Shown: piece after piece, positions 4,527 to 25,777 of the stretch
Position numbering within the stretch: position 1 is the first letter of the stretch
How the letters are laid out: every line of letters begins with the position of its first letter
IMG/VR virus record: IMGVR_UViG_3300015615_000196
Span: 224,001 to 288,000 of that record
Length of the DNA stretch: 64,000 nucleotides
Source of the DNA: a virus
Taxonomy: Duplodnaviria; Caudoviricetes
Strand: one strand, 5' to 3'
The notes under the pieces: generated by a model
Told to the model about the DNA's origin: nothing
What the model saw: only the letters and a program-made list of their open reading frames with translations
Databases searched by the model: none
Position numbers and translations under genes: made by a program

Positions 4527-7490
4527 ATGGGAGATACAAATTGTCCTAAACTTGACCCTAAACTTTATAGTCAAATTTTAGAGAAGTGCCTTACTTCTCT
4601 CAATTTGCCTATTGAGTACTCTTTAATCGGTGGTCGTACCTGCGGGAACGCCTACTTGAGTCATGGACGAGTCTACAAAGTAACGACCGACAAATCAGAA
4701 GCAGTCGAATCCAACAAAGTAGTTGGAAAGAACAACTCCCACTTAGTTGACGTATATAACGTCAAGAAAATCAACACCGATCTTACTCCTGAAAGCGTAT
4801 ACCTGATTGTAATGGAATACGTGAACACAGGGAAGCAAAGCATTTTCGCTGAGATTCAGGAAAACTTAATTAATCTTTTCCGTGAACACCTGAACTTGCA
4901 TCTTTTTGATTTGCTCGAAGCATACAGATTCAAACCTGAACAATATGCTGCATACGAACCAGACGTGAAAGAGGCATTGGCTCCACATCAAAAGGAAACA
5001 CTGTACTACAATACTCTTCTTGAAATTCTCGATGAACTTAAAGCCAACGGTGTCGAATCAATTGATGTCCATTACCACAACTTAGGCGTGAAGCAGAATG
5101 GTAATATTGCATTCTTTGATTTCGGATTTGGTGACGAGCAGGGAGAGGTTGATTCAATGGGTGTTAATGAGAAGGTAGAGTTGGATGAAGAAATCAAGCA
5201 ACTTTATGACGCATTGGGAAAGAACGGTATTTCACTTCAAGACTTTGCAATCAAATTGAGTGACAGACTTGGGTTTGAGGGTGCAATGATGCTTGGTAGT
5301 GGAACACAAGGTGCAGCAATTGATGTTGGTGGTGGTACTGTTATGAAAATCACAACTGACAACGGAGAGGCAAGTGAGGCAAATCATTTGGTTGGTAAAA
5401 ACAACCAGTACATAGGAAACGTATTTAAGGTTTACAAACTTGACCCTCCATACAATTTCGCATACGTCATCTTGAGAGAAAAACTTAAAGTGGATTCTCA
5501 AGAAAACAGTAGAAGAGAAAAGGTCTTTGAGAAGGTGATGGATGATAACGACATCAGTTGGTTCACATTCGATGAAATCATCATGAGAGGCAACAAGCAA
5601 GAACTTGAAGAAACCAGAGATTCATTAAGAATCAGAAACAACGCAGACATTGAAGTTGTTGATGCATTTTTTGCTGTCTTTGGCAACCTGATTGACAATG
5701 GTATCAAGAGCACAGACTTCGCACCAAACAATTTTGGTTTTAAAAACAATGGTGCATGGGCCTACTACGATTTAGGATATAGTTCAAATCCAGAAGACTT
5801 GGGTGGTGTCGAAGGACTTGCAGTGAACGAGCGTGTAGTATCTTACATGCCAAATTCATCAGCAATGAGTGTCAAGAAGAAGTGTCAAATCGGTGGCAAC
5901 GGTGACGGAACAAGTAGTGCTTGCAATCAAGGAGATATTTCGAATATCAAGCTGAATAAGATAAGTGAGCACACGAGCAAATGGAAACAAAGACTTGAAA
6001 AGAAGCAACAAGTTGAGGAAAATATGTTTTATCGTGTGCCGTCAGGCTTCACCCCGCCAAGGGGAACAACTGCACTTGACGTAGTAAATTTTGAGAGAAA
6101 TGAAAACGGCAATGTTGAAGAAATGGATATTGCACTTGAAAATGCCAAAAAGCATGGAATTGATCTTGCAAAATATCCGGCAAGTAGCGTAATTTGGGTC
6201 ACCAAAACACCGGAAGACGCAATGAGATACGGGAATGACGTTGAAGAAGAACCAATTGAGAATCCGATCATATTGACTACGGATGGTGATAATGGATATT
6301 TGGTGTTTAGAAAAGAAGGAATGATTGCAGAAGAGCAAAAAGTTGAAATCAACGATCTACCATTCAAAGGTGATGTGGAAGCTGCTGGCGGTAAAATTTA
6401 CTCTGTCGGTGGGGCTGTTCGTGACTCTATTCTTGGTAAGGAATCAAAAGACTTGGACATATTGATCACCGGACTACCACTTGATCAACTCGAAACCATT
6501 CTTTCAAAGTATGGTCGTGTCGATAACGTAGGAAAATCATTCGGTATCATCAAATACAACTCTCCGCAGACCGGAGAAATTGACATCGCAATTCCTCGTA
6601 CAGAGAGAAAGAACGATCAAGGTGGGTATCAGGGTTTCGATGTAACTTCTGATCACAATCTACCAATTGAGAAAGACCTTGAACGTAGAGACTTTACGAT
6701 CAATGCCATTGCAAAAGATAGTTCTGGCTTGATGATCGACCCTTACGGTGGACAAGGTGATATTCAGAAGAAACAGATTAAGATGGTGAACCCACAAGCC
6801 TTCTCTGACGATCCGTTGAGAATGCTTCGTGCTGTACAATTTGCATCGCGTTTTGGATTTTCGATTGAACCGGAGACACTGGCATCGATTCAACAGAATG
6901 CATCTAAGATCAGAGAGATTTCTCCTGAAAGAATCTTGATTGAGTTTGACAAAATTGTGAAGAAAGGTAATCCGATGGTCGGAGCAAAGTTGCTTCGTCA
7001 GACAGGATTGTACAATCAAATTTTTGGTGTTGACAGAGGTGTGAACTTCGCTCCTTTCGATCATGTGAAGACAATGGGAGAATTCGTGTTCTCTCTGATC
7101 AAGGACAACATTCAAAATCCTGCTGAGTACTTCAAGGATCATATGAAAGGAGACCTTGACACGTACAACAACATTCGTGCACTGGAACTTGGTAACAAGT
7201 TCAACGGAGACAAGAAGACAATCTTCGATATGTACAAGATTTATCCACAGTCTTTGAACACGGACTTGTTTGGCCCAAAGTTTAAGGATACGGTGGAGTA
7301 TATGAAGGCGAAAAACATACCGTTTTCGTTAAAAGAGGTTCCGGTAAACGGAAACGATTTGATGTCATTGGGCTTCCAAGGTAAAGAAATCGGTAATGCC
7401 TTCGTAAATGTGTTAAACAAGATTTACAGCGAAGAATTGCCCAATAATCGTGAGGATATTCTCAATTACGTGAAGACCCTTAAAGTTTAA
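4527..7490 (+). CDS. cca: polyprotein: two kinase-like domains + Cys module + ART-like module + CCA-adding tRNA nucleotidyltransferase
   Basis: Kinase motifs YKVT..E/DVHYHN/DFG and GSGTQG/MKIT..E/DFAPNN/DLG; class II NTase motifs VGGAVRD, DLDI, PRTERK, RRDFTINA, DDPLRMLR, SPERI. Confidence 0.85.
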   Translation: MGDTNCPKLDPKLYSQILEKCLTSLNLPIEYSLIGGRTCGNAYLSHGRVYKVTTDKSEAVESNKVVGKNNSHLVDVYNVKKINTDLTPESVYLIVMEYVNTGKQSIFAEIQENLINLFREHLNLHLFDLLEAYRFKPEQYAAYEPDVKEALAPHQKETLYYNTLLEILDELKANGVESIDVHYHNLGVKQNGNIAFFDFGFGDEQGEVDSMGVNEKVELDEEIKQLYDALGKNGISLQDFAIKLSDRLGFEGAMMLGSGTQGAAIDVGGGTVMKITTDNGEASEANHLVGKNNQYIGNVFKVYKLDPPYNFAYVILREKLKVDSQENSRREKVFEKVMDDNDISWFTFDEIIMRGNKQELEETRDSLRIRNNADIEVVDAFFAVFGNLIDNGIKSTDFAPNNFGFKNNGAWAYYDLGYSSNPEDLGGVEGLAVNERVVSYMPNSSAMSVKKKCQIGGNGDGTSSACNQGDISNIKLNKISEHTSKWKQRLEKKQQVEENMFYRVPSGFTPPRGTTALDVVNFERNENGNVEEMDIALENAKKHGIDLAKYPASSVIWVTKTPEDAMRYGNDVEEEPIENPIILTTDGDNGYLVFRKEGMIAEEQKVEINDLPFKGDVEAAGGKIYSVGGAVRDSILGKESKDLDILITGLPLDQLETILSKYGRVDNVGKSFGIIKYNSPQTGEIDIAIPRTERKNDQGGYQGFDVTSDHNLPIEKDLERRDFTINAIAKDSSGLMIDPYGGQGDIQKKQIKMVNPQAFSDDPLRMLRAVQFASRFGFSIEPETLASIQQNASKIREISPERILIEFDKIVKKGNPMVGAKLLRQTGLYNQIFGVDRGVNFAPFDHVKTMGEFVFSLIKDNIQNPAEYFKDHMKGDLDTYNNIRALELGNKFNGDKKTIFDMYKIYPQSLNTDLFGPKFKDTVEYMKAKNIPFSLKEVPVNGNDLMSLGFQGKEIGNAFVNVLNKIYSEELPNNREDILNYVKTLKV

Positions 7491-12467: not shown

Positions 12468-12875
12468 ATGCCAGCCATCAATATCAAATTTCCTCTTGAA
12501 GATGACGTTGAAAAGAACGTGCTGTTCAAGCAGAACAATGTATCGAAAGATGCCCTTGTTTCCAACTTGCTTTTGTTGCTTTTGACCGATGAAGGGGAAA
12601 GATTTTACATGTCCGACTATGGTATCAATCTCAGAAAATACATATTCGAACCAAAGGATGGCGTAACCGAAGCAGAAGTCACAGAAGAGATTAAAACAAG
12701 AGTAAGACAATTCATTCCGCAGCTTACCATCAATAGAGTACAGTTTTTCCATGCGGAGGAAGATCAGGACGGTAATCCACTTATGGAAAATGAGGTTAAC
12801 GTCCATATTGACTTCACCTACGGTAGTGATGTGTTCAGCGATACAGGTAGCGTAGAGATAACATTTCCAGCATAA
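12468..12875 (+). CDS. baseplate wedge protein, gp25/GPW-like
   Basis: NLLLLLLTDEGERFYMSDYGINLRKYIFEP is the gp25 signature. Confidence 0.85.
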   Translation: MPAINIKFPLEDDVEKNVLFKQNNVSKDALVSNLLLLLLTDEGERFYMSDYGINLRKYIFEPKDGVTEAEVTEEIKTRVRQFIPQLTINRVQFFHAEEDQDGNPLMENEVNVHIDFTYGSDVFSDTGSVEITFPA

Positions 12876-12887
12876 TAACAGATAGCA

Positions 12888-14741
12888 ATGGCAGATCAAA
12901 TTTCATTCAATAAACGTACTTTCACCGAATATCGTGACGAATTGGTTTCGATGATAAGAGAAATGTATCCAGAAGTATTCACAGACTTCACGGATTCAAG
13001 CGTTGGTTCAATGCTTATTGATTTGAACGCAGGTGTTGCGAACAATCTCTCAGTAAATACCGACAGAGCATTTCAAGAAACACAACTTGAAAATGCACAA
13101 CAAAGACAATCAATTCTCAACATAGCAAAAAACTTGGGATTCAACATACCGGGTAACCGTGCATCGGTAACTGTAGTTGATTTCAGCGTACAAGTTCCAG
13201 TAAGAGGCGACAGACCAAACGAAACTTACCTTCCGGTTATTCAGGCAGGTGCACAAGTATCGGGTGGTGGGAAAATTTTCGAAACCTCAGATGCTATCGA
13301 CTTCAATAGTGCATTCAGTATCTTAGGCGATCCGAACAGAGCAGAGAGTCCAAACTTTGATGGTAACGGTATTATTCAAAGCTATACAATTACAAAGAGA
13401 GAAGTAGTACTTAATGGTGCTACCAATATTTTCAAGAAGATTATTACCGATACCGAAGCAGCACCATTCTATTCGTTGTTGCTTCCTGACAGTGATGTAT
13501 TAGAGATTACATCAATCATTCTTTTGCCGGGAACAAACTATTCTGGCAATCCAACTGACGCAGATTTTTCAAATCCAGATAACAGATACTATGAAGTTGA
13601 TTATTTGATTCAGCAACGAGTGTTTGTTGATGATCCTAATGGTGGAACAACAAATGCAACGACTGGTGGCACAGGTATCAGAGCAGGAAAGTGGATGGAT
13701 GTCACCAAGAAATTCATCAAGGAATTTACGAGCGCAGGTTTATGCAAAGTAACGTTCGGTGGTGGTAATGGCGATCTTGATTTCTTTTTGGATGGTTTTG
13801 CAAAGGCCGGAGTAACCAACCAGCAATTCTTAAATAACTATTTGCTCAATACATCATTGGGTGAGAAGTTGAAAAAAGACTACACGTTATTCGTAAGATA
13901 TAGAACGGGTGGTGGTACATCATCAAACATTGGTTCAAACGTACTTAGCAGCGTTGGTAATATCAACATGATCATCAACGGGTCAAGAGACGACTTCAAT
14001 AAGCAAGTACGTAGAAGTTTAAGAGTGAACAACCCAATTCCTGCAATTGGTGGTAATGATGGGTTGAGCATCGAACAGATTAGAAATTTGATCAAGTACA
14101 ATTTCAGTTCTCAATTTAGAGACGTAACAATCAATGACTACTTGTTCCAAGTGTACAAAATGCCGGGTAAATATGGCTCACCTTTCAGAGCAAATGCTTT
14201 CAAAGAAAATAACAAGGTGGTTATTTCAATCATTGGAAAGAACAGTGATAATACATTGAACAACACCAGCAACACATTACTACAAGAAAACATTACAGAG
14301 TACTTAACAGAATTCCGTATGGTTAATGATTACGTTGAAGTGCGAAATGGTCAAATATTCAATCTTGCATTAACTTTCGACATCTTCATAGCTGATTCAG
14401 CTAATCAAGGTGAATTGGCAAACAATGTCATTCAAACCGTAAGTGCCTACTTCGATGTAAACACCACCCAAATGAATGAAGACATTTTCTTGGGTGATCT
14501 TTTAAACTCGATAAATGACATCAATGGTGTAATCAACATCATTTCGTGCAAGGTCTTCAATAAAGTCGGTAACGGTTACTCGTTAAACGAAATTGGTCAG
14601 GAATATGTGGATGAAACAACAAAAGAAATCAAATTGATTAACAATACTGTCTACAGTAGTGAAGATTCAATGTTTGAAATCAAGTATCCTCAAAAGGACA
14701 TTGTATTATATCTAAGAAAGAAGACTGACTTATTTAAGTAA
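12888..14741 (+). CDS. baseplate wedge subunit (T4 gp6 / baseplate J-like)
   Basis: DFTDSSVGSMLIDLNA, ETQLENAQQRQSILNIAKNLG, AIGGND..SIEQIR, RDVTINDY; follows gp25. Confidence 0.8.
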   Translation: MADQISFNKRTFTEYRDELVSMIREMYPEVFTDFTDSSVGSMLIDLNAGVANNLSVNTDRAFQETQLENAQQRQSILNIAKNLGFNIPGNRASVTVVDFSVQVPVRGDRPNETYLPVIQAGAQVSGGGKIFETSDAIDFNSAFSILGDPNRAESPNFDGNGIIQSYTITKREVVLNGATNIFKKIITDTEAAPFYSLLLPDSDVLEITSIILLPGTNYSGNPTDADFSNPDNRYYEVDYLIQQRVFVDDPNGGTTNATTGGTGIRAGKWMDVTKKFIKEFTSAGLCKVTFGGGNGDLDFFLDGFAKAGVTNQQFLNNYLLNTSLGEKLKKDYTLFVRYRTGGGTSSNIGSNVLSSVGNINMIINGSRDDFNKQVRRSLRVNNPIPAIGGNDGLSIEQIRNLIKYNFSSQFRDVTINDYLFQVYKMPGKYGSPFRANAFKENNKVVISIIGKNSDNTLNNTSNTLLQENITEYLTEFRMVNDYVEVRNGQIFNLALTFDIFIADSANQGELANNVIQTVSAYFDVNTTQMNEDIFLGDLLNSINDINGVINIISCKVFNKVGNGYSLNEIGQEYVDETTKEIKLINNTVYSSEDSMFEIKYPQKDIVLYLRKKTDLFK

Positions 14742-15427
14742 TGAGTTTGATAAGACGACAGATTCAGTATCAGAGTGGAGCGACCGAATACAATTTCAAT
14801 ATTTTACTCACTGCAAGTGTTAAAGATTGGGGTTTTTTCGATACACTTGACGACACAGAAATGGTCGGACAGATTAACTATGCCGATAGACCAACAACCT
14901 ATGCTGGTAATCAACCCTACGTAAACAGCTACAATTTTTCAAACTATACACCGGATGATTTTCCATCGGGGTTCACGTATACTGTGACCGGGGAATCATT
15001 CAGTCGTCTCAATGAACTTGAGAAGTACGTGGTATCAAATGATCCGAATGTAAAGTACTTCCCATACACTGGTGGAACTGACGGATTAAGCGGTTTCACA
15101 ATTAACGCATCCATGACGGCTTTCACCTACTACGTGGGTGGGATATTGTACACGGATTTGACGGTTAGTGGATCAAGTGCAACGACAACCACATTTTCAT
15201 TCAACGCAATCACAAATAACCCCCTCAATTTTGACAATAAGCGTATCGTAAAATTTGAGAATAAGCAGAACATGGTGGAGAATCCACGAGTTGGAAAGGA
15301 TGTATTTATTGTAAGACAGCAACAGCCTGTATTTGAACGAAATTACCGATTAAGAGCGGTAAATAGCTTAAATGACACGTTGACGTATGCTGGTGGGAAT
15401 TATTTTACAATTTTCGATAACACATAA
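14741..15427 (+). CDS. putative virion structural protein
   Basis: Beta-rich T/S/N/G composition within the baseplate operon. Confidence 0.55.
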   Translation: MSLIRRQIQYQSGATEYNFNILLTASVKDWGFFDTLDDTEMVGQINYADRPTTYAGNQPYVNSYNFSNYTPDDFPSGFTYTVTGESFSRLNELEKYVVSNDPNVKYFPYTGGTDGLSGFTINASMTAFTYYVGGILYTDLTVSGSSATTTTFSFNAITNNPLNFDNKRIVKFENKQNMVENPRVGKDVFIVRQQQPVFERNYRLRAVNSLNDTLTYAGGNYFTIFDNT

Positions 15428-15430
15428 GAT

Positions 15431-16345
15431 ATGGCAATAGGAACCTTTGGAAATATCAGACCAGCCGACATTAATCCTGCTGATTTAGAAATTTTCTACA
15501 CGTATGCAGTCAATAGAGAAACCGCACCAATTGGTTTCACTGCTTTGACGGCAACAGAAGTATTGACGGAATTCACAATTCCATCAAGCGATCCGAACTT
15601 TGTGAGTGGAGAAGAAAACTTATTGGGCGGCATGTACAACCTTACGCTCAAAGCATCTATCTTCAACCAGTTTGGTATCTACACGATCTTCATCAGACCA
15701 AAAGCAATTCGTACTACGATTACAGATTGCGGTGTATTGTCATCACTCCCATCTGTAAAGGGTATTGTTCTTAATGTGAACGACCTTGACGCAAGTTTAA
15801 GAGGTAACAATGCACTTCAAGGATACCGTGTAGAGTATATTCAAAACGATGGTACTAAATTGAGAAACGTAGTTCGCTACGTGACCACCTCAAACAGAGT
15901 TGTACCTGTAACCGACAACATTTCGAACACGAGCCAAACGGCAGTACGATACAGATTCGATGACTCTGGTAATTTATTGTTCTTACAAGTGACACCGAGC
16001 AGTGCATCGGCAGTAAAGCCAAATATCACTCCGTTTATCGGATCACCGAACCAGAGCATATTGCTTTCAAACACCAACGTCAATCCTGAAACGATTGAAG
16101 TTGAAATTGTTGAAAACACAATTGATAGCTTGGTTGATTACGTTGCTGGTGAACAAATCAGAGACGTGAAGAAAGGTATCTTGACCTACTACGATAAAAA
16201 CAGAGCGATCACAAGACAGTTTGACGTGTACGACATCGAAGACAACATCAATCAGGAAGAGTTATTTGAAGTTAAACAAAAGAGAGAAACCATTGACAAC
16301 AGTCAAGATTTTGATACTGTTACTGGTGACGTGACCGGATCGTAA
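15431..16345 (+). CDS. putative baseplate/virion structural protein
   Basis: Position in structural operon. Confidence 0.6.
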   Translation: MAIGTFGNIRPADINPADLEIFYTYAVNRETAPIGFTALTATEVLTEFTIPSSDPNFVSGEENLLGGMYNLTLKASIFNQFGIYTIFIRPKAIRTTITDCGVLSSLPSVKGIVLNVNDLDASLRGNNALQGYRVEYIQNDGTKLRNVVRYVTTSNRVVPVTDNISNTSQTAVRYRFDDSGNLLFLQVTPSSASAVKPNITPFIGSPNQSILLSNTNVNPETIEVEIVENTIDSLVDYVAGEQIRDVKKGILTYYDKNRAITRQFDVYDIEDNINQEELFEVKQKRETIDNSQDFDTVTGDVTGS

Positions 16346-16346
16346 T

Positions 16347-19300
16347 ATGGCAAAGATAAAGGTAATAAATAAGAGAGACGGCAAAACAGCCGTTGGTAGT
16401 TCGTTCAGAAACATCCCGTCTGAAACTATTTTCAGTTTTGGTGATTTTTCGGTTGAAACGAACTTTAATACTCGTGTTGTTAAAAACTATAGCAACACTC
16501 TCAGTTCCTTTGTAAAACCAATTACGCTTGAGACTCTAAATGTTACACCGGAAGATTCATTGAAGATAATGAACTTCTCGACCGATGTAAAACTGAACCT
16601 TCAATTATCGGATATTGGTTCGTATGTGAGATACGGATCAACAAAGGAACTTTTGAGAGTTTCGGTTGAGAATATCATCGCAGAATTTCCTTCAAGTTTA
16701 TTCTTATCGTATCAAACAGATACAAGTAAGGTATACTCGGTATTCAACTACAGCTACAATCCTATTTTGGACGTGTCTACGTTTGATATACCATACAACG
16801 CAGTTCACAACACCTTTGGTTTATCAATCAACGAAGGAAATGAACAGTTACCACAAAATAACGTTCTAAGAAACTTAAATATCAGCTACAACAACTACGT
16901 CATTTGGCGTAGTGAGTTTGCTGATGACAATACCCATCAAGTACTCGGATTTACTGGTCTCTCAAATACCAATCCATTCATTCATGTGGTTGTTGCTGGT
17001 GATCCATTCCCGGAAATGACCTCTGGCTTTACAACTCAGGACTTCAAGAACTATCACATGAAGCCTATGCCGTTGTATTTCAACAAGTTCTTTGAAGACT
17101 TGACTCAATTGGAGAAATACATGGTATCTGATAAGGTTGATTTGGGTTACCAAATGATTTTTAAGAAGGCATTCATTTCAGAAGATAGTACTGTTACCTA
17201 TGCAAATCAGACAGTCATTTGGACAACTGGTGACGGTTACAACATTGACATCACTGGCGCACAATACAGCAAGTTCTTGGACGATCTTGGTGATCTTGGC
17301 GATGACTACGATAAGTTCAAGACTGATACAATCATTCGTATGCTTGTACCTCAGTCGTTGTTACAGTATGATACTACCGAAGAAGGTAAGATGTCAAAGT
17401 TGCTCAGAGTATACGGTAGAAACTTCGATAGTATCAAAGTTTATGTTGATGCTCTTGCATACGTAAACACATTTACCTACGATAAGAAAGATAACGCACC
17501 TGATGTAATTGTAAAGAACTTTGCAAAGACATTAGGATGGGATGTAACCACATTGGTTACCGATGATGACTTATTGAGCAGCGTATTCTCGACCACCTCA
17601 ATGAATAAGGACGATGTAACACCACCAGAGGTCGATATTGAACTTTGGAGACGAATTGTCATCAACACAAATTATCTTTTTAAAGCAAAAGGTACTCGTC
17701 ATGCATTGAAGGCTATGTTTTTGTTGGTTGGTATCCCCGAACCATTCATTGACATCAAAGAATATGTTTACACGGTAGATCAGGTAATCGATCCAAATAC
17801 AGTAACCGTAAGTCTTGCTGATTTACCTTCGGCATCTTTACCCTACAACGTTCAAGGATACCCAATTGCCCCGATTGAGACAGAGAAGTTCTATTTCCAG
17901 ATTAGCGGTAGCACCGATTCTGGTCAGGCATATATTGACAACTATAGAAAGGTTGGCTTCAAGGTTAACAGAACAGAAGATAACAAGAAATCATGGGTAA
18001 AGGCAGGTAGTGTTGAGAGAATACACTATTCAACGCCAAACTACTATCAGCGTGACAGCAATTTGATCATCAATACAAAAGAAGTTGATGCAACTCTCGA
18101 CATCGCAAGAGGTATCGAGTACGACATGTTCAAATATAACGTTGAACAGAACTTCCCTATCACAAATACTGGTAGAACCAAGCCGTTTATCTACATCAAC
18201 ATTGCAGCAAGCTATGGCGTATCTGCAAACACATTCACGTTACCCGAAAATGCACAGGGGGATATACAAGTTAACTTCAATGGTTTCAACTTAAAGAAGG
18301 GAACGGATTACACTCAGATCGGTTTGAATCAAGTTCAATTGATTGGTGGTGTCGCACAAACACTTTCAAACGGAGAGAAAGACATAATCACGCTTACCTA
18401 TGCTAACGATCATAATAATACGGGCTTCTACAATCAGGTCAGCTTCGTGGTTACGGCAGTTGCAGCAAACATCAGTGGTATGGTAATTCCATTACCAGAA
18501 GTACCGTTGGGTGAAGTTCAGTTGAGTGTAAACGGAGTGAGCCTTGCAAAGGGCACTACGTTGTATACTGGCGACTATATTACGAATCCGGGTAACCCAT
18601 CAGAATTGTTAGTGGTTAACAGTTCGTTGATGACATACTTGCAAACCAATCCAATTGTGGTTATCTCGTATTTCAAGTCAACACAACCAGAAACACTACA
18701 GAAAAAATCAGAAGTATTCCGTGTTGATAGTTTTAGCAGTGCAAAGTTCTTCTTTAACATTTCGTTGAGCAAGTACACTTATGTGATGGACTATGAAGCA
18801 CCAGACGTATCTGCAATAAAGGTCATTGTTAATGGTTTGACACTTCAAAACACAACGGACTTCATTTTGAATCCTACGAATAAGAAACAAATTTTATTCA
18901 ATACCAGTGGTATCAATATAGGTTACATCATTCACGTATTCTATGTTATCGATACTTCCGCACCAGATGTACCGATTACCTTTGGTGACTTTGTGTTCCC
19001 GGATTTCTCTACAATCAGTTTCTTGGAGTATCTCGAATTGATCAATAGAAGATTGATTAACGTTAAGAACAGAAAGACACTTACTGATCATGAAGGTGGC
19101 ATCTATCCTACAGTACAAAAGCTGTATGAGGAATATCTCAAGAGAAGTTTTGCTCAACCTCCGATTACACCAAGTAACGGATACACGTTCTACAACTTGT
19201 ACCCATTCATCAACAAATTCAATGCTTACTTCCATAAGTTCATTGACCAGATGTTGAGTGCAACAATCATTTTGAAGAAGGGCGGGGTAATGGTTCGTAA

Positions 19301-19529
19301 TACAGACTATACAAAACAGAAGTTCCCGTATCGTAGAGGTGTGAGTTTTATTCAACTTTTAAATCATTTAGGTGATGACGGTTCGGAATTTAAAGTAGCA
19401 GTACCTGCACCAGCAGCAGTGGCATTGTATATCTTCCGTGATGACGAGAACGAACCAGCCTACATTTATCAGGAAAATGAACATCGTCCACCCTATTTAT
19501 TTGTAGAAACCGAAATAACACCACCATAA
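16347..19529 (+). CDS. baseplate wedge/tail protein (P2 gpI-like core with inserted beta-repeat modules)
   Basis: AKTLGW...LWRRIVINTNYLFKAKGTRHAL core; repeated (V/I)x(F/V)NG-x-x-L...DY/DF modules. Confidence 0.6.
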   Translation: MAKIKVINKRDGKTAVGSSFRNIPSETIFSFGDFSVETNFNTRVVKNYSNTLSSFVKPITLETLNVTPEDSLKIMNFSTDVKLNLQLSDIGSYVRYGSTKELLRVSVENIIAEFPSSLFLSYQTDTSKVYSVFNYSYNPILDVSTFDIPYNAVHNTFGLSINEGNEQLPQNNVLRNLNISYNNYVIWRSEFADDNTHQVLGFTGLSNTNPFIHVVVAGDPFPEMTSGFTTQDFKNYHMKPMPLYFNKFFEDLTQLEKYMVSDKVDLGYQMIFKKAFISEDSTVTYANQTVIWTTGDGYNIDITGAQYSKFLDDLGDLGDDYDKFKTDTIIRMLVPQSLLQYDTTEEGKMSKLLRVYGRNFDSIKVYVDALAYVNTFTYDKKDNAPDVIVKNFAKTLGWDVTTLVTDDDLLSSVFSTTSMNKDDVTPPEVDIELWRRIVINTNYLFKAKGTRHALKAMFLLVGIPEPFIDIKEYVYTVDQVIDPNTVTVSLADLPSASLPYNVQGYPIAPIETEKFYFQISGSTDSGQAYIDNYRKVGFKVNRTEDNKKSWVKAGSVERIHYSTPNYYQRDSNLIINTKEVDATLDIARGIEYDMFKYNVEQNFPITNTGRTKPFIYINIAASYGVSANTFTLPENAQGDIQVNFNGFNLKKGTDYTQIGLNQVQLIGGVAQTLSNGEKDIITLTYANDHNNTGFYNQVSFVVTAVAANISGMVIPLPEVPLGEVQLSVNGVSLAKGTTLYTGDYITNPGNPSELLVVNSSLMTYLQTNPIVVISYFKSTQPETLQKKSEVFRVDSFSSAKFFFNISLSKYTYVMDYEAPDVSAIKVIVNGLTLQNTTDFILNPTNKKQILFNTSGINIGYIIHVFYVIDTSAPDVPITFGDFVFPDFSTISFLEYLELINRRLINVKNRKTLTDHEGGIYPTVQKLYEEYLKRSFAQPPITPSNGYTFYNLYPFINKFNAYFHKFIDQMLSATIILKKGGVMVRNTDYTKQKFPYRRGVSFIQLLNHLGDDGSEFKVAVPAPAAVALYIFRDDENEPAYIYQENEHRPPYLFVETEITPP

Positions 19530-19543
19530 GAACTGATTAATAT

Positions 19544-20434
19544 ATGTACAAATACATTGATTTTACGAAAACAGGGGGATTCCCGCTTACACAAGATGTA
19601 ATGGCATTTCTTCAAGACAGCTATGATAAAGTATTTGGAAGCATCGCACAGACTTTGGGCCAATATAACATTCTTACTGGATGTACTTTTGATGGTGGTA
19701 GTGGAAGCTATGGTAGTGGATGGATCACATACAATGGTGAAGTTTTACCTTTTGTGGGTGCTCCGGCTGTTCCAAATGGTGTTATTGTGGTTGAAAGTGC
19801 ACATACAGTAACATACAGAGATACATCAATGAATGCTGTAATTAAGACCAGATATGCTACACTTGGTTCTGGTGGTATACCAATCACGTCATTTAGTATA
19901 AACACACTTGCAAGTTTAAAAAATGGTATTGACGGAGCCAATGCAGCCGCAGCACAAGCAGCCGCAGATGCAGCAGCAGCACAATCTGCGGCAGCAGCAG
20001 CTACATCAACAGCAAACAATGCACTTTCAGTTGCAGGTTCGGCAGGTCTTCCTTCTGGAACAATTATTTTGTGGAGTGGTTCCGTTGGTTCAATTCCCTC
20101 TGGCTTCGTACTATGTAATGGTGGAAGTGGGACTCCTGATTTACGCGATAGATTCGTTGTGGGTGCTGGTCTATCGTATAGCCCCGGTAATACTGGTGGT
20201 GCTAATGGGGTCACGTTAACCACGCCACAAATACCAACACACACTCACACTGTTAACGGACAAACAGGTGGTGATAATAATGACCATAGTAACAACACAA
20301 GATTTGCTGGTGGTGATAAAGGTGTTTCAGAAAGTGCATTCTTTTTCGCAATCAGCAGTGGTTCGGCAGGTGGTAATCAATCACACGAAAACCGTCCACC
20401 ATACTATGCCTTGTGTTATATCATGAAAACTTAA
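19544..20434 (+). CDS. tail fibre / tail-collar domain protein
   Basis: LPSGTIILWSG..IPSGFVLCNG..TPDLRDRFVVGAG and HENRPPYYALCYIMK collar motifs; Ala-rich linker. Confidence 0.85.
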   Translation: MYKYIDFTKTGGFPLTQDVMAFLQDSYDKVFGSIAQTLGQYNILTGCTFDGGSGSYGSGWITYNGEVLPFVGAPAVPNGVIVVESAHTVTYRDTSMNAVIKTRYATLGSGGIPITSFSINTLASLKNGIDGANAAAAQAAADAAAAQSAAAAATSTANNALSVAGSAGLPSGTIILWSGSVGSIPSGFVLCNGGSGTPDLRDRFVVGAGLSYSPGNTGGANGVTLTTPQIPTHTHTVNGQTGGDNNDHSNNTRFAGGDKGVSESAFFFAISSGSAGGNQSHENRPPYYALCYIMKT

Positions 20435-20443
20435 TTAATAATC

Positions 20444-21379
20444 ATGCTATTCTTAACCACACAACCGGATAGCGATTATTACATTTGGCAGCTTCAAGTA
20501 CAGATTAACAATTTCAAAAAGTTTGGATGTGAGGACAAATGCATTGTTATCTTTGGCTACAACCCGGTAATCGGTATCAATCCAAAAGCAAAAGAGTTTC
20601 AGTCTCAGACTACGGCTAAGGTATTATTCTATCCTGATAACCGAGATTTGTCAACCAGACTTTATCTTCCATCGATTCGACCACATTTACTCAAGCAGCT
20701 TTATCGTGAAAATCCAGAAATTATTCTTGATCAGAATTTCTTGTATTTGGATTGTGACATCATATTTGCCGACTATCCAGATTTCAGTGAGATCAATGGT
20801 GAAAAATTTGTTCATGTGAGTGATACAAATGAATTATTTTCGTATGAAGACATCGCAGAGACAAACAAAGAACTCTTTTTCAATATGTGTAAGGAAGTGG
20901 GTATCCCACCATATACTGTTGAGAATTACAAGAACGCTATCGGTGGAATAACATACGCATTTAAATTCTTCCACTACTTCGATTACGATTTTTGGGATAA
21001 AGTGGAACGTGATTCTGTTGCACTTTATAAGATGATGCTGGTAACCAATAACGAAGACAGCATTTCACAAATCATGTCAGTAAACAAATGGGCTTTGATG
21101 TGGAACCTTTGGTTAATAGGATACGATACCAAGGTATCAAACGAATTGAAGGTTATGTGGGCAATGAATAGTATTGAAGATTGGGATGACTACAATTTGT
21201 ACAACAATGCAGGGGTTGAAGAACAGCAAAGTAAGTATTTATTCTATAAGCACGACTATACAGAAAAGTCTCCTTTCGGAGTAGATTTTTCATACGTTTC
21301 TGACAAACATTGTTCATACAAATACGTTGAAGAATTGATCTCTACGGGGAAAGCACTTAAAGCATTGGACAATGAGTAA
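20444..21379 (+). CDS. GT-A glycosyltransferase, HPAT/SGT1 (GT95/GT96)-like, paralog 1
   Basis: YYIWQ, YLPSIRP, DxD motif YLDCDIIF; paralogous to the next ORF. Confidence 0.65.
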   Translation: MLFLTTQPDSDYYIWQLQVQINNFKKFGCEDKCIVIFGYNPVIGINPKAKEFQSQTTAKVLFYPDNRDLSTRLYLPSIRPHLLKQLYRENPEIILDQNFLYLDCDIIFADYPDFSEINGEKFVHVSDTNELFSYEDIAETNKELFFNMCKEVGIPPYTVENYKNAIGGITYAFKFFHYFDYDFWDKVERDSVALYKMMLVTNNEDSISQIMSVNKWALMWNLWLIGYDTKVSNELKVMWAMNSIEDWDDYNLYNNAGVEEQQSKYLFYKHDYTEKSPFGVDFSYVSDKHCSYKYVEELISTGKALKALDNE

Positions 21380-22307
21380 TCAGACACTATTCATATCGGT
21401 ACAACCAGACACAGACTACTACGTTTGGCAGTTAATGGTTCAAATGAAGAATTTCAGAAAGTTTAATATCGAGAATAGTGCAATCATCATCTTCGTTTAC
21501 AATCCTCGTACTGGAATAAACAAAACAGCATTAAAATTTGAGAAGAACACTAACGCAGTTGTATTATACTTCCCGGACAACAGAACAGATTACGATAGAA
21601 GATATGTTTCTTCCATTAGACCATATGCACTGGCTGAATTTTATAGACAGTATTATGAGTTGGTGGCAGAGGCAAATGTTTTTTATCACGATTCGGATAT
21701 TGTCTTTACTGAACTTCCTGATTTTAATGCTTTGAGTAAGGAAAATAAAATTATGGTATCAGATACGATGTCGTACATTGGTGCGAAGTATGTGAGAAGT
21801 AAGAGTTACGAGTTGCTTGTTGAAATGTGTAAAATTGTTGGCGTTGATTCTCAACTTGTGATTGACAACGAAGAGAAGACTGGTGGTGCGCAGTACTTCA
21901 TTCCAAACAACCTCAAACTTTCTTCTGATTTTTGGAATAAGGTTAAGTTGGATTCTGTGGCACTTTTTGACTACATGAATTCAACCACATCTAAGTATGC
22001 ACCTTCTGATCCGATTCAGGCATGGACTGCGGATATGTGGGCATTACTCTGGAATTTTTGGTTGATTGGATACGACTCAAAAATTTCAAAAGAATTGGCA
22101 TTCTCATGGGCGACTGATCCAATTGCTTATTGGAAGGCAAATAAAATATTTCACAATGCAGGTGTTACACCAGATCGCAAAAATTTGTTCTTTAAAGGGG
22201 GTTTTATGACTAAAATGCCGTTCGGGGAAGATTTTAGTTATGTCTCAGAACAGTTTTGTTCTAAGAAGTATGTTGAAGAAATCATGTCCACCCCAAATTT
22301 GCGCTAA
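21372..22307 (+). CDS. GT-A glycosyltransferase, HPAT/SGT1 (GT95/GT96)-like, paralog 2
   Basis: YYVWQ, YVSSIRP, YHDSDIVF, GGAQY, WTADMWA, FHNAGV. Confidence 0.7.
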   Translation: MSNQTLFISVQPDTDYYVWQLMVQMKNFRKFNIENSAIIIFVYNPRTGINKTALKFEKNTNAVVLYFPDNRTDYDRRYVSSIRPYALAEFYRQYYELVAEANVFYHDSDIVFTELPDFNALSKENKIMVSDTMSYIGAKYVRSKSYELLVEMCKIVGVDSQLVIDNEEKTGGAQYFIPNNLKLSSDFWNKVKLDSVALFDYMNSTTSKYAPSDPIQAWTADMWALLWNFWLIGYDSKISKELAFSWATDPIAYWKANKIFHNAGVTPDRKNLFFKGGFMTKMPFGEDFSYVSEQFCSKKYVEEIMSTPNLR

Positions 22308-22346
22308 ATCCCAAGAATTAGTATTTATTTTAGAACATCGTAAGAT

Positions 22347-24980
22347 ATGTCATTTATACTAAAAACGAACCCTACAGTCATCAACATCAAACTCACCAAT
22401 CTTGGGAGACAAAGCCTTTCACAGGGCACTTTGACCTTTAAGAAGTGGGCAATCGGAGACAGTGAAGTAGATTATTCGTTTAATTCAGATATTGCTTTTG
22501 ATTCATTTCGAGCAACCATACTTAGACCAAAGGATGGTAACCCGAAATTCTTATCTTATATCAAAAGAGACGACTCAGACCCCGCAAGTATATATACGGA
22601 CTTGCCATCGGTAGTTTCAAACACTAACATCATTACGAATACTGCAACAGAGAGAGGTTTCTTCAACATCACGACTGGTGGTACTCAAATTTATACTGAT
22701 GTTATTCATTGTAAGCAGCCTGATATGCAAATCTACATTTCGGGAGCAACTGGTGGCACAAAAATATCAATCAAAAAAGCCCCATCATATATTGCGAATG
22801 TGGTTGAACCTGTAGTTGGTGATTATATTGTTGTTAAGTGGGCTAATCCAATAATTACTGGTGGTACTGTTACTCCAATCGTAAATCAAAATGTACCATA
22901 CATCTGGTATAAGATTCATGCGAAAACTGGTACGTTGAGTGCAAATGATTTACTTGTTACAGTTGACAAACAAACACCTGATTTCAGTGGTTACGTTGGC
23001 AACATTGCATCGGGAGCATTCTGTTATCCGAATAACAACAATAGAGACGTAAGTGGTGACTCGGTACAAACCTACTATAGTACACCATTCGTTACTGATT
23101 TTATTGATGATAGTGTTATCGCATTCTTAGAAAATTGTATTTGTCCAACAAGAGACGTTCCTGTTTGGAATTTGGCCATTGTATTCACAGAAGAAGTGGC
23201 TGGTGTTACTTCAAACATGAGAAACATTTCTCAATATTACACAAAAGGTTTTGGTGGGTTTGTGAGATATATTGAACGTATCAGCACAGACATTAAAAAA
23301 ATTGGCATCATTCACTTCACGAATTCATCACCAAACAACCACTACGGTGAAGGTTTTTTTGATGATACTCCAATTCTTGATTTGCCAACAATCATGTGGC
23401 ATCATGAAACAGGTAATACAATTGGCTTACAATTAACTTCTGCATTTGATGTACAATATTTACCTGATCTTGAAACTCCTTATAGAGATTTGGTTGACAA
23501 ATATGGAACAATTGTAGGCAAGGTTTTTAATGACTTGAAGATTTTCGTAATTGAAGATCAGGAATTATTGTTTGCAATGACCTACAAAGGTAATAGAAAT
23601 TGGACATTGCCAAGACCCACTCTTGCATTGAATACAACCTTGTGTGAGGGTTGTAATTTGATTATAACTACAATAACAACAACACCAGATGATGGATCGA
23701 ATATTGGATCGTTAACAATCAATACTGACTATGGTTTGGGACAGTTATTGTATTCGATAAATGGTTCGATCTTCGTTACTGGAAATACATTCAGTAATTT
23801 GAGCGGTGGAACCTATAATGTAACTGTAATCGATACGGGTGTTAACAACTGTGTTCAAACTCAGATTGTAAGTGTGCCGTTGAATACGACAACTACGACT
23901 ACTACAACGACCACGACAACTACGACTACTACAACGACCACGACAACTACGACCACAACTACAACAACACCGCCTCCACAAGAATTTTGGATAGTAAGGG
24001 ATGGTGGTCAAGTGTTGTATACATTAAATGGTGGGCAAACTTGGGTAGATAGATCAATACCAGCAGCAGTGGTTCCCACAATTGCAAGTCATTTACTTAC
24101 TTATGATATTAGTTTTGTAGGACAAACAGGATATATATTGGGTAATGCTGGTAGTTTATTCCTTGTTAAAACTATTGATGGCGGTCAAAACTGGACAAAT
24201 ATTAGTGCAAAAGTACCGGGCCTTGGAATCACGACAGCACCAACTTCAATGTATGCGATTGATGCAAATACTGTTGTTATTGGAACTGATACTGCTGATT
24301 CGCAGATTTGGAAAACAACTGATGGTGGTGCAACTAATTTTGTTGGATATGCGAAAGGGCCAGCAGCAACAATGAATAGATTAGTCTTCACTTCACAATT
24401 GACTGCATATGCTTCGGATGTATATGCATCTGGCGGCTTCCGCACATATAAATCAACTCTTGGTGGTGCTTCGTTAGTTGGTAAGGATGATGCGGGAATG
24501 AGTAGTGCTTATTTGTTCGACATTTCGGCAATTGGAAACAATGTGGCTGTTGGTGGTGGTTATGATTTGTGGAAGTCAACAAATGGTGCAGGAACTTGGA
24601 CAAAAATAACGACACTTCCTAATCAGGGGAATTATGCTGACGATATTTATGTTTACGCAGTGAAAATATTGAGTAATGGCAATATCATTGTAGCGGGTAC
24701 GACCAGTAGCTATTCACAGAACAAATTTGCTATGTCAAGTGATGGTGTGAATTGGACGGTGACGAATGTTCCAATAACTGGTAATGGTGTTGCTACATCA
24801 TATTATTATCATAATAATATTGATTTTGCACCTGACGAATTACATGGTATTGCAGTAATAAACAGTGGTGACAAAATTATGAGAACTTCTGATGGAGGAT
24901 TAACGTGGACATTGACATCATTGGGCTTTGGAGTTAAATCAATCACGGCAGTTTCCGCAGCAAAATTACCGTTACTATAA
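22347..24980 (+). CDS. tail/baseplate protein with poly-Thr linker and C-terminal Asp-box (BNR/YCF48-like) beta-propeller
   Basis: N-terminal IKLTNLGRQSLSQG...WAIGD; Thr28-PPP; repeats TLNGGQTW, TIDGGQNW, TTDGGATNF, STNGAGTW, SSDGVNW, TSDGGLTW. Confidence 0.75.
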   Translation: MSFILKTNPTVINIKLTNLGRQSLSQGTLTFKKWAIGDSEVDYSFNSDIAFDSFRATILRPKDGNPKFLSYIKRDDSDPASIYTDLPSVVSNTNIITNTATERGFFNITTGGTQIYTDVIHCKQPDMQIYISGATGGTKISIKKAPSYIANVVEPVVGDYIVVKWANPIITGGTVTPIVNQNVPYIWYKIHAKTGTLSANDLLVTVDKQTPDFSGYVGNIASGAFCYPNNNNRDVSGDSVQTYYSTPFVTDFIDDSVIAFLENCICPTRDVPVWNLAIVFTEEVAGVTSNMRNISQYYTKGFGGFVRYIERISTDIKKIGIIHFTNSSPNNHYGEGFFDDTPILDLPTIMWHHETGNTIGLQLTSAFDVQYLPDLETPYRDLVDKYGTIVGKVFNDLKIFVIEDQELLFAMTYKGNRNWTLPRPTLALNTTLCEGCNLIITTITTTPDDGSNIGSLTINTDYGLGQLLYSINGSIFVTGNTFSNLSGGTYNVTVIDTGVNNCVQTQIVSVPLNTTTTTTTTTTTTTTTTTTTTTTTTTTTTPPPQEFWIVRDGGQVLYTLNGGQTWVDRSIPAAVVPTIASHLLTYDISFVGQTGYILGNAGSLFLVKTIDGGQNWTNISAKVPGLGITTAPTSMYAIDANTVVIGTDTADSQIWKTTDGGATNFVGYAKGPAATMNRLVFTSQLTAYASDVYASGGFRTYKSTLGGASLVGKDDAGMSSAYLFDISAIGNNVAVGGGYDLWKSTNGAGTWTKITTLPNQGNYADDIYVYAVKILSNGNIIVAGTTSSYSQNKFAMSSDGVNWTVTNVPITGNGVATSYYYHNNIDFAPDELHGIAVINSGDKIMRTSDGGLTWTLTSLGFGVKSITAVSAAKLPLL
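23886..23969 (+). repeat. poly-threonine tract (28 ACN codons, including two exact 27-bp units)
   Basis: ACGACAACTACGACTACTACAACGACC x2, then 10 further Thr codons. Confidence 0.95.
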
Positions 24981-24991
24981 TTGATTAAGAA

Positions 24992-25777
24992 ATGAGTGCA
25001 CCTAAAACAATATTCTTTACGTATGTGATGGCAACTTCACCGATAACAGGTGGAACATACACCCATACGTATCAAACTCAAACTAATTTTGGTTATGGGA
25101 CGGCAATTCACTGTAACTATGTAGAGAGATTTGAAGCCGAGTCGTTGGCAAATAAAAACATCAACGTAATCTTACCTGATGGTTCTGCATTTCCTTTCTT
25201 GAGAAATTCATCTGAGATTCAAGCAGGATTTGATGGATGGGGATGGAATGCAAGATACTTGTTTGGCTTGTGTCAGATCGTAGACGGAACTGGAAGTACG
25301 GTAACTGCCGATCCTACCAACTGGTCTGTGATTGATTTAACGCCTCAATTAGACAACTACAATACGTTCTCTGGAACAACCATTCCAGTAACTGCATTTA
25401 ACTCGTCAACGATCATGATTATCCGTATTACGGACGTGATCAACGCACCGAAATATAGCTTGGCATATTTGAACAACCCATCAAAATTGAGTGTGGACGA
25501 CAACAAGTTGGCATTCGGGGAAGAAGCCTTCTTTTTCGGTAACGTAAGAGCCGATATTTTGGCAAGAGCCTACACAACCGAGATTCCAGCAGTACTTCCG
25601 TTGAACCAATACAACTCGACTACCAACCCTACTTGGGATGCTGTTTCCCCGGTGGTAATCAGTGAAATGGGCATTTTTGACGAAAATAACAACCTTGTAG
25701 CCGTAGGGAAGCTAAACAACCCTATCGAAAAGGATTCGACCATCTACCGTACTGTGCTTTTCAGCATAGATTTCTAA
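24992..25777 (+). CDS. tail/baseplate protein with DUF3751-like C-terminal motif
   Basis: VVISEMGIFDENNNLVAVGKL. Confidence 0.65.
   Translation: MSAPKTIFFTYVMATSPITGGTYTHTYQTQTNFGYGTAIHCNYVERFEAESLANKNINVILPDGSAFPFLRNSSEIQAGFDGWGWNARYLFGLCQIVDGTGSTVTADPTNWSVIDLTPQLDNYNTFSGTTIPVTAFNSSTIMIIRITDVINAPKYSLAYLNNPSKLSVDDNKLAFGEEAFFFGNVRADILARAYTTEIPAVLPLNQYNSTTNPTWDAVSPVVISEMGIFDENNNLVAVGKLNNPIEKDSTIYRTVLFSIDF

Follow-up and report, generated by a model that had tools for sequence, protein, structure and literature searches.

A pair of adjacent glycosyltransferase (GT) genes, here called GT-a and GT-b, lies among the baseplate and tail-fibre genes of a large, uncultured tailed bacteriophage, and the gene that follows them encodes an 877-residue protein with an uninterrupted run of 28 threonine residues (Thr28). 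The stretch of DNA analysed here (the window) comprises 64,000 nucleotides, positions 224,001 to 288,000 of the IMG/VR virus record IMGVR_UViG_3300015615_000196. Members of the same enzyme family are found beside poly-threonine (poly-Thr) proteins throughout a broad collection of viral loci, and this comparative evidence suggests that GT-a and GT-b probably form a cytoplasmic O-glycosylation system for the Thr28 linker of the neighbouring protein. An initial annotation, made from the sequence of the window, had proposed that a phage-encoded pair of transferases acts on the adjacent threonine tract, and the family-wide pairing described below supports this proposal.

Pairing of the enzyme family with poly-threonine tracts

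The enzyme-selected sample comprised 80 IMG/VR loci containing a homolog, with up to 10 kb of flanking sequence per side. A serine/threonine-dense (S/T-dense) open reading frame (ORF) was present in 56 of the 80 loci, and in 45 it lay within 150 bp of the GT gene, that is, directly adjacent to it. Nearly all of the S/T-dense ORFs were on the GT strand (76/79), and their counts in successive distance bins from the GT were 45, 12, 11, 5, 5, 1 and 0. Dereplication at 70% GT identity left 48 clusters. A poly-Thr ORF, defined as one with at least nine Thr in 12 residues, occurred in 36 of these 48 clusters and in none of 118 control loci, which were quasi-random viral loci obtained via an arbitrary 14-mer and are unmatched in habitat and phage type (Fisher p = 1.9e-26). 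The poly-Thr ORF was directly adjacent to the GT in 26 clusters and within 2 kb in 33. With a run of T6 as the criterion, the figures were 38/48 and 1/118, and no GT of the family was found in the 118 control loci. The co-occurrence of the GT family with poly-Thr proteins across phages, which the initial annotation had proposed as a check, is thus borne out by viral loci that partly share phylogeny even after dereplication.

The partner proteins are diverse. The 52 poly-Thr proteins fall into approximately 30 unrelated sequence clusters, which indicates that the enzyme is paired with the tract itself rather than with any single protein family; Pfam and PHROGs scans of ten neighbouring poly-Thr proteins returned almost nothing. 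A converse sample of 118 viral loci was selected by the DNA pattern (ACN)10, and 69 of them contained an in-frame run of at least T10. The GT was present in eight of these 69 loci, always starting within 25 bp downstream of the poly-Thr ORF (8/8).

Prokaryote genomes contain the enzyme in two forms. The stand-alone form (up to 360 residues) is found mostly in prophage-like Firmicutes loci and contigs of metagenome-assembled genomes, and the fused form, which has two domains in approximately 480-830 residues with a second GT-like domain at the C-terminus, is found on chromosomes of Chitinophaga, Pedobacter, Sphingobacterium and Mucilaginibacter (loci L335-L412). A poly-Thr ORF lay within 2 kb at 22 of 26 stand-alone loci versus 1 of 45 fused loci (p = 2.5e-13), so the pairing belongs to the stand-alone, viral branch. 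Run on homologous loci from which that branch is absent, the same pipeline found almost no poly-Thr. The fused homologs probably represent a separate cellular branch working in polysaccharide synthesis, which is possibly the source of the phage enzyme.

Threonine tags near the GT were identified in seven cultured phages, and the tagged proteins are capsid, tail-tube or portal proteins or small neighbouring proteins. In Lactobacillus phage iLp84, (ACN)6 runs occur at only three sites in the genome, namely at the C-termini of the major head and major tail proteins and in a 125-residue protein whose gene immediately precedes the GT. Clostridium phage phiCTP1 has runs at the C-termini of its portal and tail-tube proteins. 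In Enterococcus phage phiFL1A they are located at the C-termini of the capsid protein and a tail protein, and the GT gene directly follows the tail gene. The same pairing is seen in Enterococcus phage VPE25, Staphylococcus phage SA2, Lactobacillus phage LpeD and Chryseobacterium phage MA9V-3.

Unusual reading frames accompany the tagged genes in two of these phages. In VPE25 (LT615366.1, approximately 77900-78060; L004:6715-6870), the -1 frame is open for about 50 codons directly past the major capsid stop codon; this unannotated frame encodes ...PQPTTTTTTTVKPTTTTTSTTTTTTTVKPTTTTTTTTATPGE just upstream of the GT gene, and a programmed frameshift may give a fraction of the capsid subunits a poly-Thr tail. 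In SA2 (MH356730.1; L322:11661-11924), the 3' end of the major tail protein gene shares its DNA with a small annotated ORF in a different frame, which encodes a long poly-Thr stretch directly before the GT. This ORF looks like a frameshift extension of the tail-tube protein, which itself ends in T8.

A matched control was provided by 11 phages with a homologous major tail protein, for which up to 8 kb on each side of the tail gene was covered (downstream only for cIP1). In the two matched phages with the GT, phiFL1A and R3.3, capsid and tail proteins alike bear Thr runs, whereas none of the nine without it (three Javan prophages, P9, SPP1, cIP1, Aeromonas AS1, Silenus and phiJL-1) has a Thr run in the region around the tail gene. 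R3.3 belongs to one genus together with Silenus and phiJL-1, which do not have the GT.

These comparisons bear on whether the enzymes act on other targets, for example precursors of the host envelope, the DNA of the phage, or a different residue or protein, in which case the adjacency would reflect a shared variable accessory region of structural operons. The fused chromosomal homologs, with a poly-Thr neighbour at a single locus, indicate that acceptors other than poly-Thr are possible for the fold, the majority of viral poly-Thr ORFs have no such GT nearby, and another GT is encoded 10 kb upstream in the window. However, of the 79 S/T-dense ORFs, 45 are no more than 150 bp from the GT and the number declines steeply with distance, the partner proteins represent about 30 unrelated families, the pairing is shared by phages of several morphotypes with hosts from several phyla, and the relatives without the GT have no tags. 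Furthermore, small temperate Firmicutes phages place the GT between the tail-tube and chaperone genes, an improbable site for a gene of DNA or envelope modification. Other targets are consequently an unlikely explanation of the adjacency. Returning to glycosylation of the threonine tract, it is reasonably probable that the stand-alone enzyme recognises poly-Thr itself in any carrier, and that poly-Thr together with its transferase would constitute a portable glyco-tag for phages.

Fold and catalytic motifs of the two paralogs

The description of the enzymes as two adjacent 311-residue paralogs holds, as their ORFs overlap by 8 nt and the proteins are 44% identical (E 5e-88). Both match phrog_4417 (E 7.4e-48 for GT-a and 1.8e-65 for GT-b) over approximately 290 of the 293 profile positions, a family annotated in PHROGs as 'unknown function', and they are its only copies in the 362.6-kb genome to which the window belongs. 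The motifs listed in the initial annotation were all found: Y-Y-x-W-Q, Y-x-x-S-I-R-P and DxD occur in both proteins, as DYYIWQ, LYLPSIRP and LDCDI in GT-a and as DYYVWQ, RYVSSIRP and HDSDI in GT-b, and W-x-A-D-M-W occurs in GT-b (WTADMWA), where GT-a has KWALMW. A Pfam scan of the two paralogs yielded no family above threshold.

The AlphaFold2 model of GT-b, built with 60 homologs, has a predicted local distance difference test (pLDDT) score of 96.5 and a predicted template modelling (pTM) score of 0.93, and consists of a single Rossmann-like alpha/beta/alpha domain of the GT-A type with the DxD motif after the fourth strand. Its best matches among solved structures are GT-A glycosyltransferases, retaining GT8-like enzymes first: glycogenin (match value 14.4), LgtC (14.0), Skp1 alpha-galactosyltransferase (13.4), the catalytic domain of UGGT (13.2), WbbM (13.1) and GlyE (12.6). 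Given the GT8-like fold, the mechanism may be retaining, in which case the linkage would be alpha. D107-x-D109 is invariant in both homolog alignments, one of 60 sequences (A1) and one of 52 diverse sequences (A3); G172, H261 and G264 are invariant in the diverse homologs (52 sequences for H261) and K275 is nearly so. Neither protein has an N-terminal signal or membrane segment, the first beta-strand beginning at residue 5. Many metagenomic relatives carry a C-terminal fusion to a GT2, GT6, GT25 or GT7C domain, which places the family in glycan synthesis. On the basis of the model and these alignments, GT-a and GT-b are predicted to be soluble, cytoplasmic, metal-dependent glycosyltransferases of the GT-A type.

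Other candidate relationships were rejected. A profile search of the Protein Data Bank with the family alignment returned transcription activator-like (TAL) effectors with E values down to 2e-8, an artefact of summing a 30-residue resemblance over many repeats, as single repeats score 1-4 bits with per-domain E values of at least 250. The segment concerned is a helix-loop at A1 profile positions 128-169 (approximately residues 130-175 of GT-b) with the pattern LLxxMCxIVGIxPxxVxxNxxxSGGAQY, and its resemblance to TAL-effector repeats is taken as chance. RIO1, AsiA and DUF7394 each appeared once among the Pfam matches, with E > 0.05, and were likewise attributed to chance.

The two paralogs differ in how closely they follow the family. 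GT-b agrees with the consensus at all 49 columns of at least 90% conservation. GT-a departs at 12 of the 49; among these changes are His261 to Asn, W218M, M222K and AQ173-174IT (GGAQY to GGITY), and DxD, GG and K275 are retained. A tandem GT pair was found in only two of 84 viral loci, the window and L005, a related 371.5-kb phage contig used for synteny. The first copy in L005, the ortholog of GT-a, differs at four columns and keeps His261. Since the tandem pair is confined to these two loci and the L005 copy is less diverged, GT-a is a lineage-specific duplicate with either altered specificity or decay.

The changes in GT-a raise the question of whether the proteins are enzymes at all. They could instead be non-catalytic assembly factors, chaperones or scaffolds that bind poly-Thr and have kept the GT fold without transferring sugar, and the loss from GT-a of the invariant His261 and 11 other conserved positions would fit such a role, as would the PHROGs label and the fact that an enzymatic role of the family is predicted only. 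Nevertheless, the conservation of D107-x-D109, G172, H261, G264 and K275 is the pattern expected of an active metal and nucleotide-sugar site, GT-b preserves every conserved column, and the fusions to other GT domains point to enzymatic glycan building. Accordingly, a purely structural role is considered very unlikely.

The Thr28 protein and its genomic setting

Residues 514-541 of the 877-residue protein are all Thr, an unbroken run of exactly 28 that precedes PPP, and all four Thr codons are used (ACA 9, ACG 8, ACT 8, ACC 3). Elsewhere in the 362.6-kb genome no Thr run exceeds T4, and the Thr frequency is 0.066; the tract is therefore not a product of chance. An S/T-dense run is present in one of approximately 800 ORFs of the genome, namely in this protein, which adjoins the GTs. 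The tract and PPP join the N-terminal part to a beta-propeller, as had been proposed: the C-terminal region matches PF14870 (BNR/YCF48-type, PSII_BNR; E 1.3e-11), and strict Asp-box motifs occur in it four times, at residues 559, 609, 744 and 847.

The N-terminal part, named a tail domain in the initial annotation, is less readily assigned. Its first 510 residues were modelled poorly (pLDDT 62, pTM 0.40), with only an FN3/Ig-like domain at residues 430-510 clear, so the term 'tail protein' stands as a reading of the gene context, and the fold itself cannot be read. BFVD matches that would have indicated a tail-protein identity were weak (template modelling score approximately 0.1) and were set aside. 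A widespread family with identities up to 75% includes residues 1-513, and 69 of its 120 members listed are shorter than 600 residues. The closest members, of approximately 515-530 residues, end without a C-terminal extension. Among the closest homologs (at least 53% identical), those with an added C-terminal module mostly have a Thr-rich linker at the same junction (approximately residues 518-533), and those without a module have no such linker.

The organisation of L005 extends this pattern. There, the N-terminal family of the 877-residue protein is a stand-alone gene of 434 residues, and the propeller homolog (37-40% identity) is encoded by a separate gene of 469 residues, behind poly-Thr on a different carrier of 105 residues. 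L005 also encodes a 1208-residue homolog (L005:4031-7657) of the 1060-residue protein of the window, which has an extra poly-Thr run at residue 1062 and a short C-terminal module and is a second case of module gain or loss at a poly-Thr joint. Because L005 carries the propeller and the 1060-residue homolog differently, each with poly-Thr, the sequence comparison indicates that poly-Thr is a joint attaching exchangeable distal modules to conserved baseplate and fibre-region proteins, with the GT genes staying in the middle of the region.

A joint of this kind need not be glycosylated. Thr28 could be an unmodified flexible spacer that arose by repeat expansion, with tract and enzyme both serving as markers of a shared mobile fibre-module lineage. 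The tract DNA includes a perfect 27-bp unit repeated 2.5 times, which points to recent expansion, and poly-Thr linkers are present in many viral proteins without this GT. However, the pairing is found in Bacteroidota-type jumbo phages, environmental phages (contigs of at least 40 kb), Firmicutes siphophages and one myophage, and the carriers are unrelated, with tags either C-terminal or internal, a distribution that is hard to derive from one module by descent. The matched relatives differ only in the tag plus the GT, and an unmodified spacer appears quite unlikely.

If the tract is indeed the acceptor of GT-a and GT-b, both enzymes would be made late, together with the baseplate and fibre proteins, and, before the virion is assembled or while it is, would transfer sugars from host cytoplasmic nucleotide sugars to the Thr hydroxyls of the linker. 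GT-b would be the canonical enzyme, and GT-a, with its altered sugar-pocket-like positions, would probably add a different sugar or extend the first. Once glycosylated, the linker would form a mucin-like stalk connecting the conserved, virion-anchored N-terminal part to the distal beta-propeller. Mucins, cellulase linkers and glycosylated mycobacteriophages offer analogies for the benefit, which could lie in a linker that is extended and resists proteases, in concealment from antibodies or host sensors, or in adhesion.

Several points weigh against this interpretation. The support for Thr glycosylation is comparative throughout: fold, conserved motifs, gene order and statistical association are established, whereas acceptor, donor, linkage, roles of the two paralogs and benefit are proposals. 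The control loci differ from the GT loci in the respects noted above. About a quarter of the viral GT clusters have no strong poly-Thr ORF within 10 kb, although several of them show T5-T6 runs in a large upstream protein. Conversely, the GT is near only 12-21% of viral poly-Thr ORFs (8/69 overall, 5/24 with adequate flanks), so the tract does not require the GT. The fused bacterial homologs are untied to poly-Thr, and the family as a whole is thus not restricted to this acceptor. GT-a, without the invariant His, may be inactive, and the virion location of the 877-residue protein is suggested by gene context alone.

The coordinates of the features are given in the table. The initial annotation placed the paralogs inside a tail operon, and the context agrees: the plus-strand block at approximately 12468-25777 is tightly packed, with intergenic gaps of -8 to 39 nt, it contains a phrog_219 baseplate wedge gene, and its phrog_1800 tail-collar fibre gene ends 9 nt before GT-a. 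The designation as a tail operon is drawn from this context. A promoter scan of the block found promoter-like sites below the level of shuffled sequence, and a terminator scan found 14 terminator-like sites against 8.7 ± 3.0 in shuffled sequence, which is not clearly more. The conserved 261-residue protein downstream probably belongs to the same fibre and baseplate block. Just upstream of the baseplate genes, a 460-residue protein is, by its profile matches, probably a further glycosyltransferase of the GT-B type, which may contribute to or extend the same glycan.

Features of the window (positions in nucleotides, numbered from the first letter of the 64,000-nt stretch)
Feature	Position	Strand	Remarks
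GT-B type glycosyltransferase (probable), 460 aa	8758-10140	+	phrog_7162 'glycosyltransferase', E 8.7e-39; Pfam Glyco_trans_1_4 sub-threshold, E 0.0011
Baseplate wedge subunit	12888-14741	+	phrog_219, E 1.8e-23
Two small proteins	between wedge gene and 1060-aa gene	+	upstream baseplate block (12888-19529)
1060-aa protein	16347-19529	+	60% identical to the 1208-aa protein of L005
Tail-collar fibre protein	19544-20434	+	phrog_1800, E 1e-27; other tail-fibre PHROGs also match
GT-a, 311 aa	20444-21379	+	divergent paralog, stand-alone GT-A glycosyltransferase family phrog_4417
GT-b, 311 aa	21372-22307	+	canonical member of phrog_4417
877-aa protein	22347-24980	+	starts 39 nt past GT-b
N-terminal conserved part of 877-aa protein, residues 1-513	22347-23885	+
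Thr28 tract (23886-23969) and PPP (23970-23978)	23886-23978	+	proposed O-glycosylation acceptor, inter-module linker
BNR/Asp-box beta-propeller of 877-aa protein, residues 545-877	23979-24980	+	PF14870
Conserved 261-aa protein	24992-25777	+	57% identical and syntenic in L005; weak phrog_1780 match (tail-collar fibre), E 1.4e-4

The genome contig is 362,603 bp in length and approximately 48 bases of its start recur at its end; it is most likely a complete jumbo-phage genome, circular or terminally redundant. Among cultured phages, the one with the nearest relative of the GT is Chryseobacterium phage MA9V-3, a relationship that hints at a Bacteroidota host, and a megablast search of the phage collection did not find a close relative. 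Elsewhere in the window, a 987-residue protein (4527-7490) contains a tRNA nucleotidyltransferase domain of the CCA-adding type at residues 622-834 (phrog_2244, E 4.7e-66), and no tRNA gene was found within the 64 kb.

Relation to known glycosylation systems and significance

The initial annotation described the enzymes as HPAT/SGT1-like. This resemblance is retained only in part: the Pfam HPAT family (PF23452) is the sole recurring Pfam match, but it falls far below threshold, and the nearest structures are GT8-like. The GT-b score is 10.6 bits (E 0.35), where the cut-off is 23.9, and no match was obtained for GT-a. HPAT matches were found for 3 of 60 and 2 of 52 homologs at E <=1 or <=0.1 (best E 0.004; the scans overlap, together 5 of 112 entries), and these too lie below the gathering threshold. 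In the ESM Atlas, PF23452 is assigned to 18 of the 30 nearest named clusters, covering 10% and 40% of members in two that were listed. HPATs are Golgi type II membrane-anchored proteins, and their membrane anchor is not shared by the phage GTs, which have no hydrophobic N-terminal segment. HPAT (GT95), the hydroxyproline O-arabinosyltransferase of plants and algae, and SGT1 (GT96), a peptidyl-serine galactosyltransferase, are, like the proposed phage enzymes, predicted GT-A enzymes that place sugars onto extended repeats rich in hydroxy-amino acids, although their acceptors are hydroxyproline or Ser and the phage acceptor would be Thr. We know of no solved GT95 or GT96 structure, and none was among the structure matches of GT-b.

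The closest structural similarity is to retaining GT8-type enzymes (glycogenin, LgtC, Skp1 alpha-galactosyltransferase and GlyE), at approximately 10% sequence identity, and Pfam GT8 (PF01501) has no match at E <=1 in GT-a, GT-b or the 60 homologs. The DxD motif, H261 and K275 of the phage GTs may be equivalent to the GT8 catalytic residues. GlyE decorates a pneumococcal serine-rich-repeat adhesin in the cytoplasm. A64R of chlorovirus PBCV-1 and the fibril enzymes of giant viruses belong to viruses of eukaryotes and are structurally more distant from the phage GTs, and the PBCV-1 glycans are N-linked, unlike the O-glycans proposed here on Thr. The phage enzymes thus constitute a separate sequence family with a faint relation to HPAT and with GT8 nearest by structure.

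The mycobacteriophages Che8, Corndog and Myrna reportedly encode glycosyltransferases that modify the phages' own structural proteins within the host cell, and the glycans are said to be carried on terminal extensions of capsid and tail-tube subunits. To our knowledge, mycobacteriophages provide the only experimental proof of virion glycosylation by phage-encoded enzymes; in these phages the modification alters recognition by antibodies. Thr tags occupy the corresponding positions in the Firmicutes phages described here, at the C-termini of capsid and tail-tube proteins, an arrangement known in them from genes alone. In contrast to the mycobacteriophages, the hosts here are not Actinobacteria, the enzymes belong to phrog_4417, and the gene is located inside the structural operon beside its presumed substrate. 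The proposed acceptor is also different, being near-homopolymeric Thr, and in the window it is an internal linker of a fibre-region protein and not a capsid or tube tail. The 50 best BFVD matches did not include any mycobacteriophage protein.

A published account of large Bacteroidota phages from aquatic habitats distinguishes four core groups of glycosyltransferases and only lists possible roles (PMC12619734). A full-text literature search found no paper tying this enzyme family or poly-Thr tags to phage glycosylation. Hence phage self-glycosylation is already known, and it is the enzyme family, the type of acceptor and the host range that differ here.

If the proposed system is real, self-glycosylation would be widespread, occurring in aquatic Bacteroidota jumbo phages and many environmental phages and including phages of Enterococcus, Staphylococcus, Lactobacillus and Clostridium that are well studied or used in therapy. 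It would then bear on the immunogenicity and stability of phages in therapy, on cryo-electron microscopy maps, in which disordered glycan-bearing Thr tails stay invisible, and on the annotation of a family now labelled 'hypothetical'. It would also bear on the way in which exchangeable receptor-binding modules are joined to phage particles. In addition, cytoplasmic glyco-engineering would gain an attractive tool, a single soluble enzyme paired with a short homopolymeric acceptor. Finally, if poly-Thr and its transferase do act as a portable glyco-tag, phages would possess a mucin-like O-glycosylation code, with which those infecting Bacteroidota, Firmicutes and other hosts would coat capsids, tail tubes and fibre linkers with sugar and which could be transplanted to tag arbitrary proteins.

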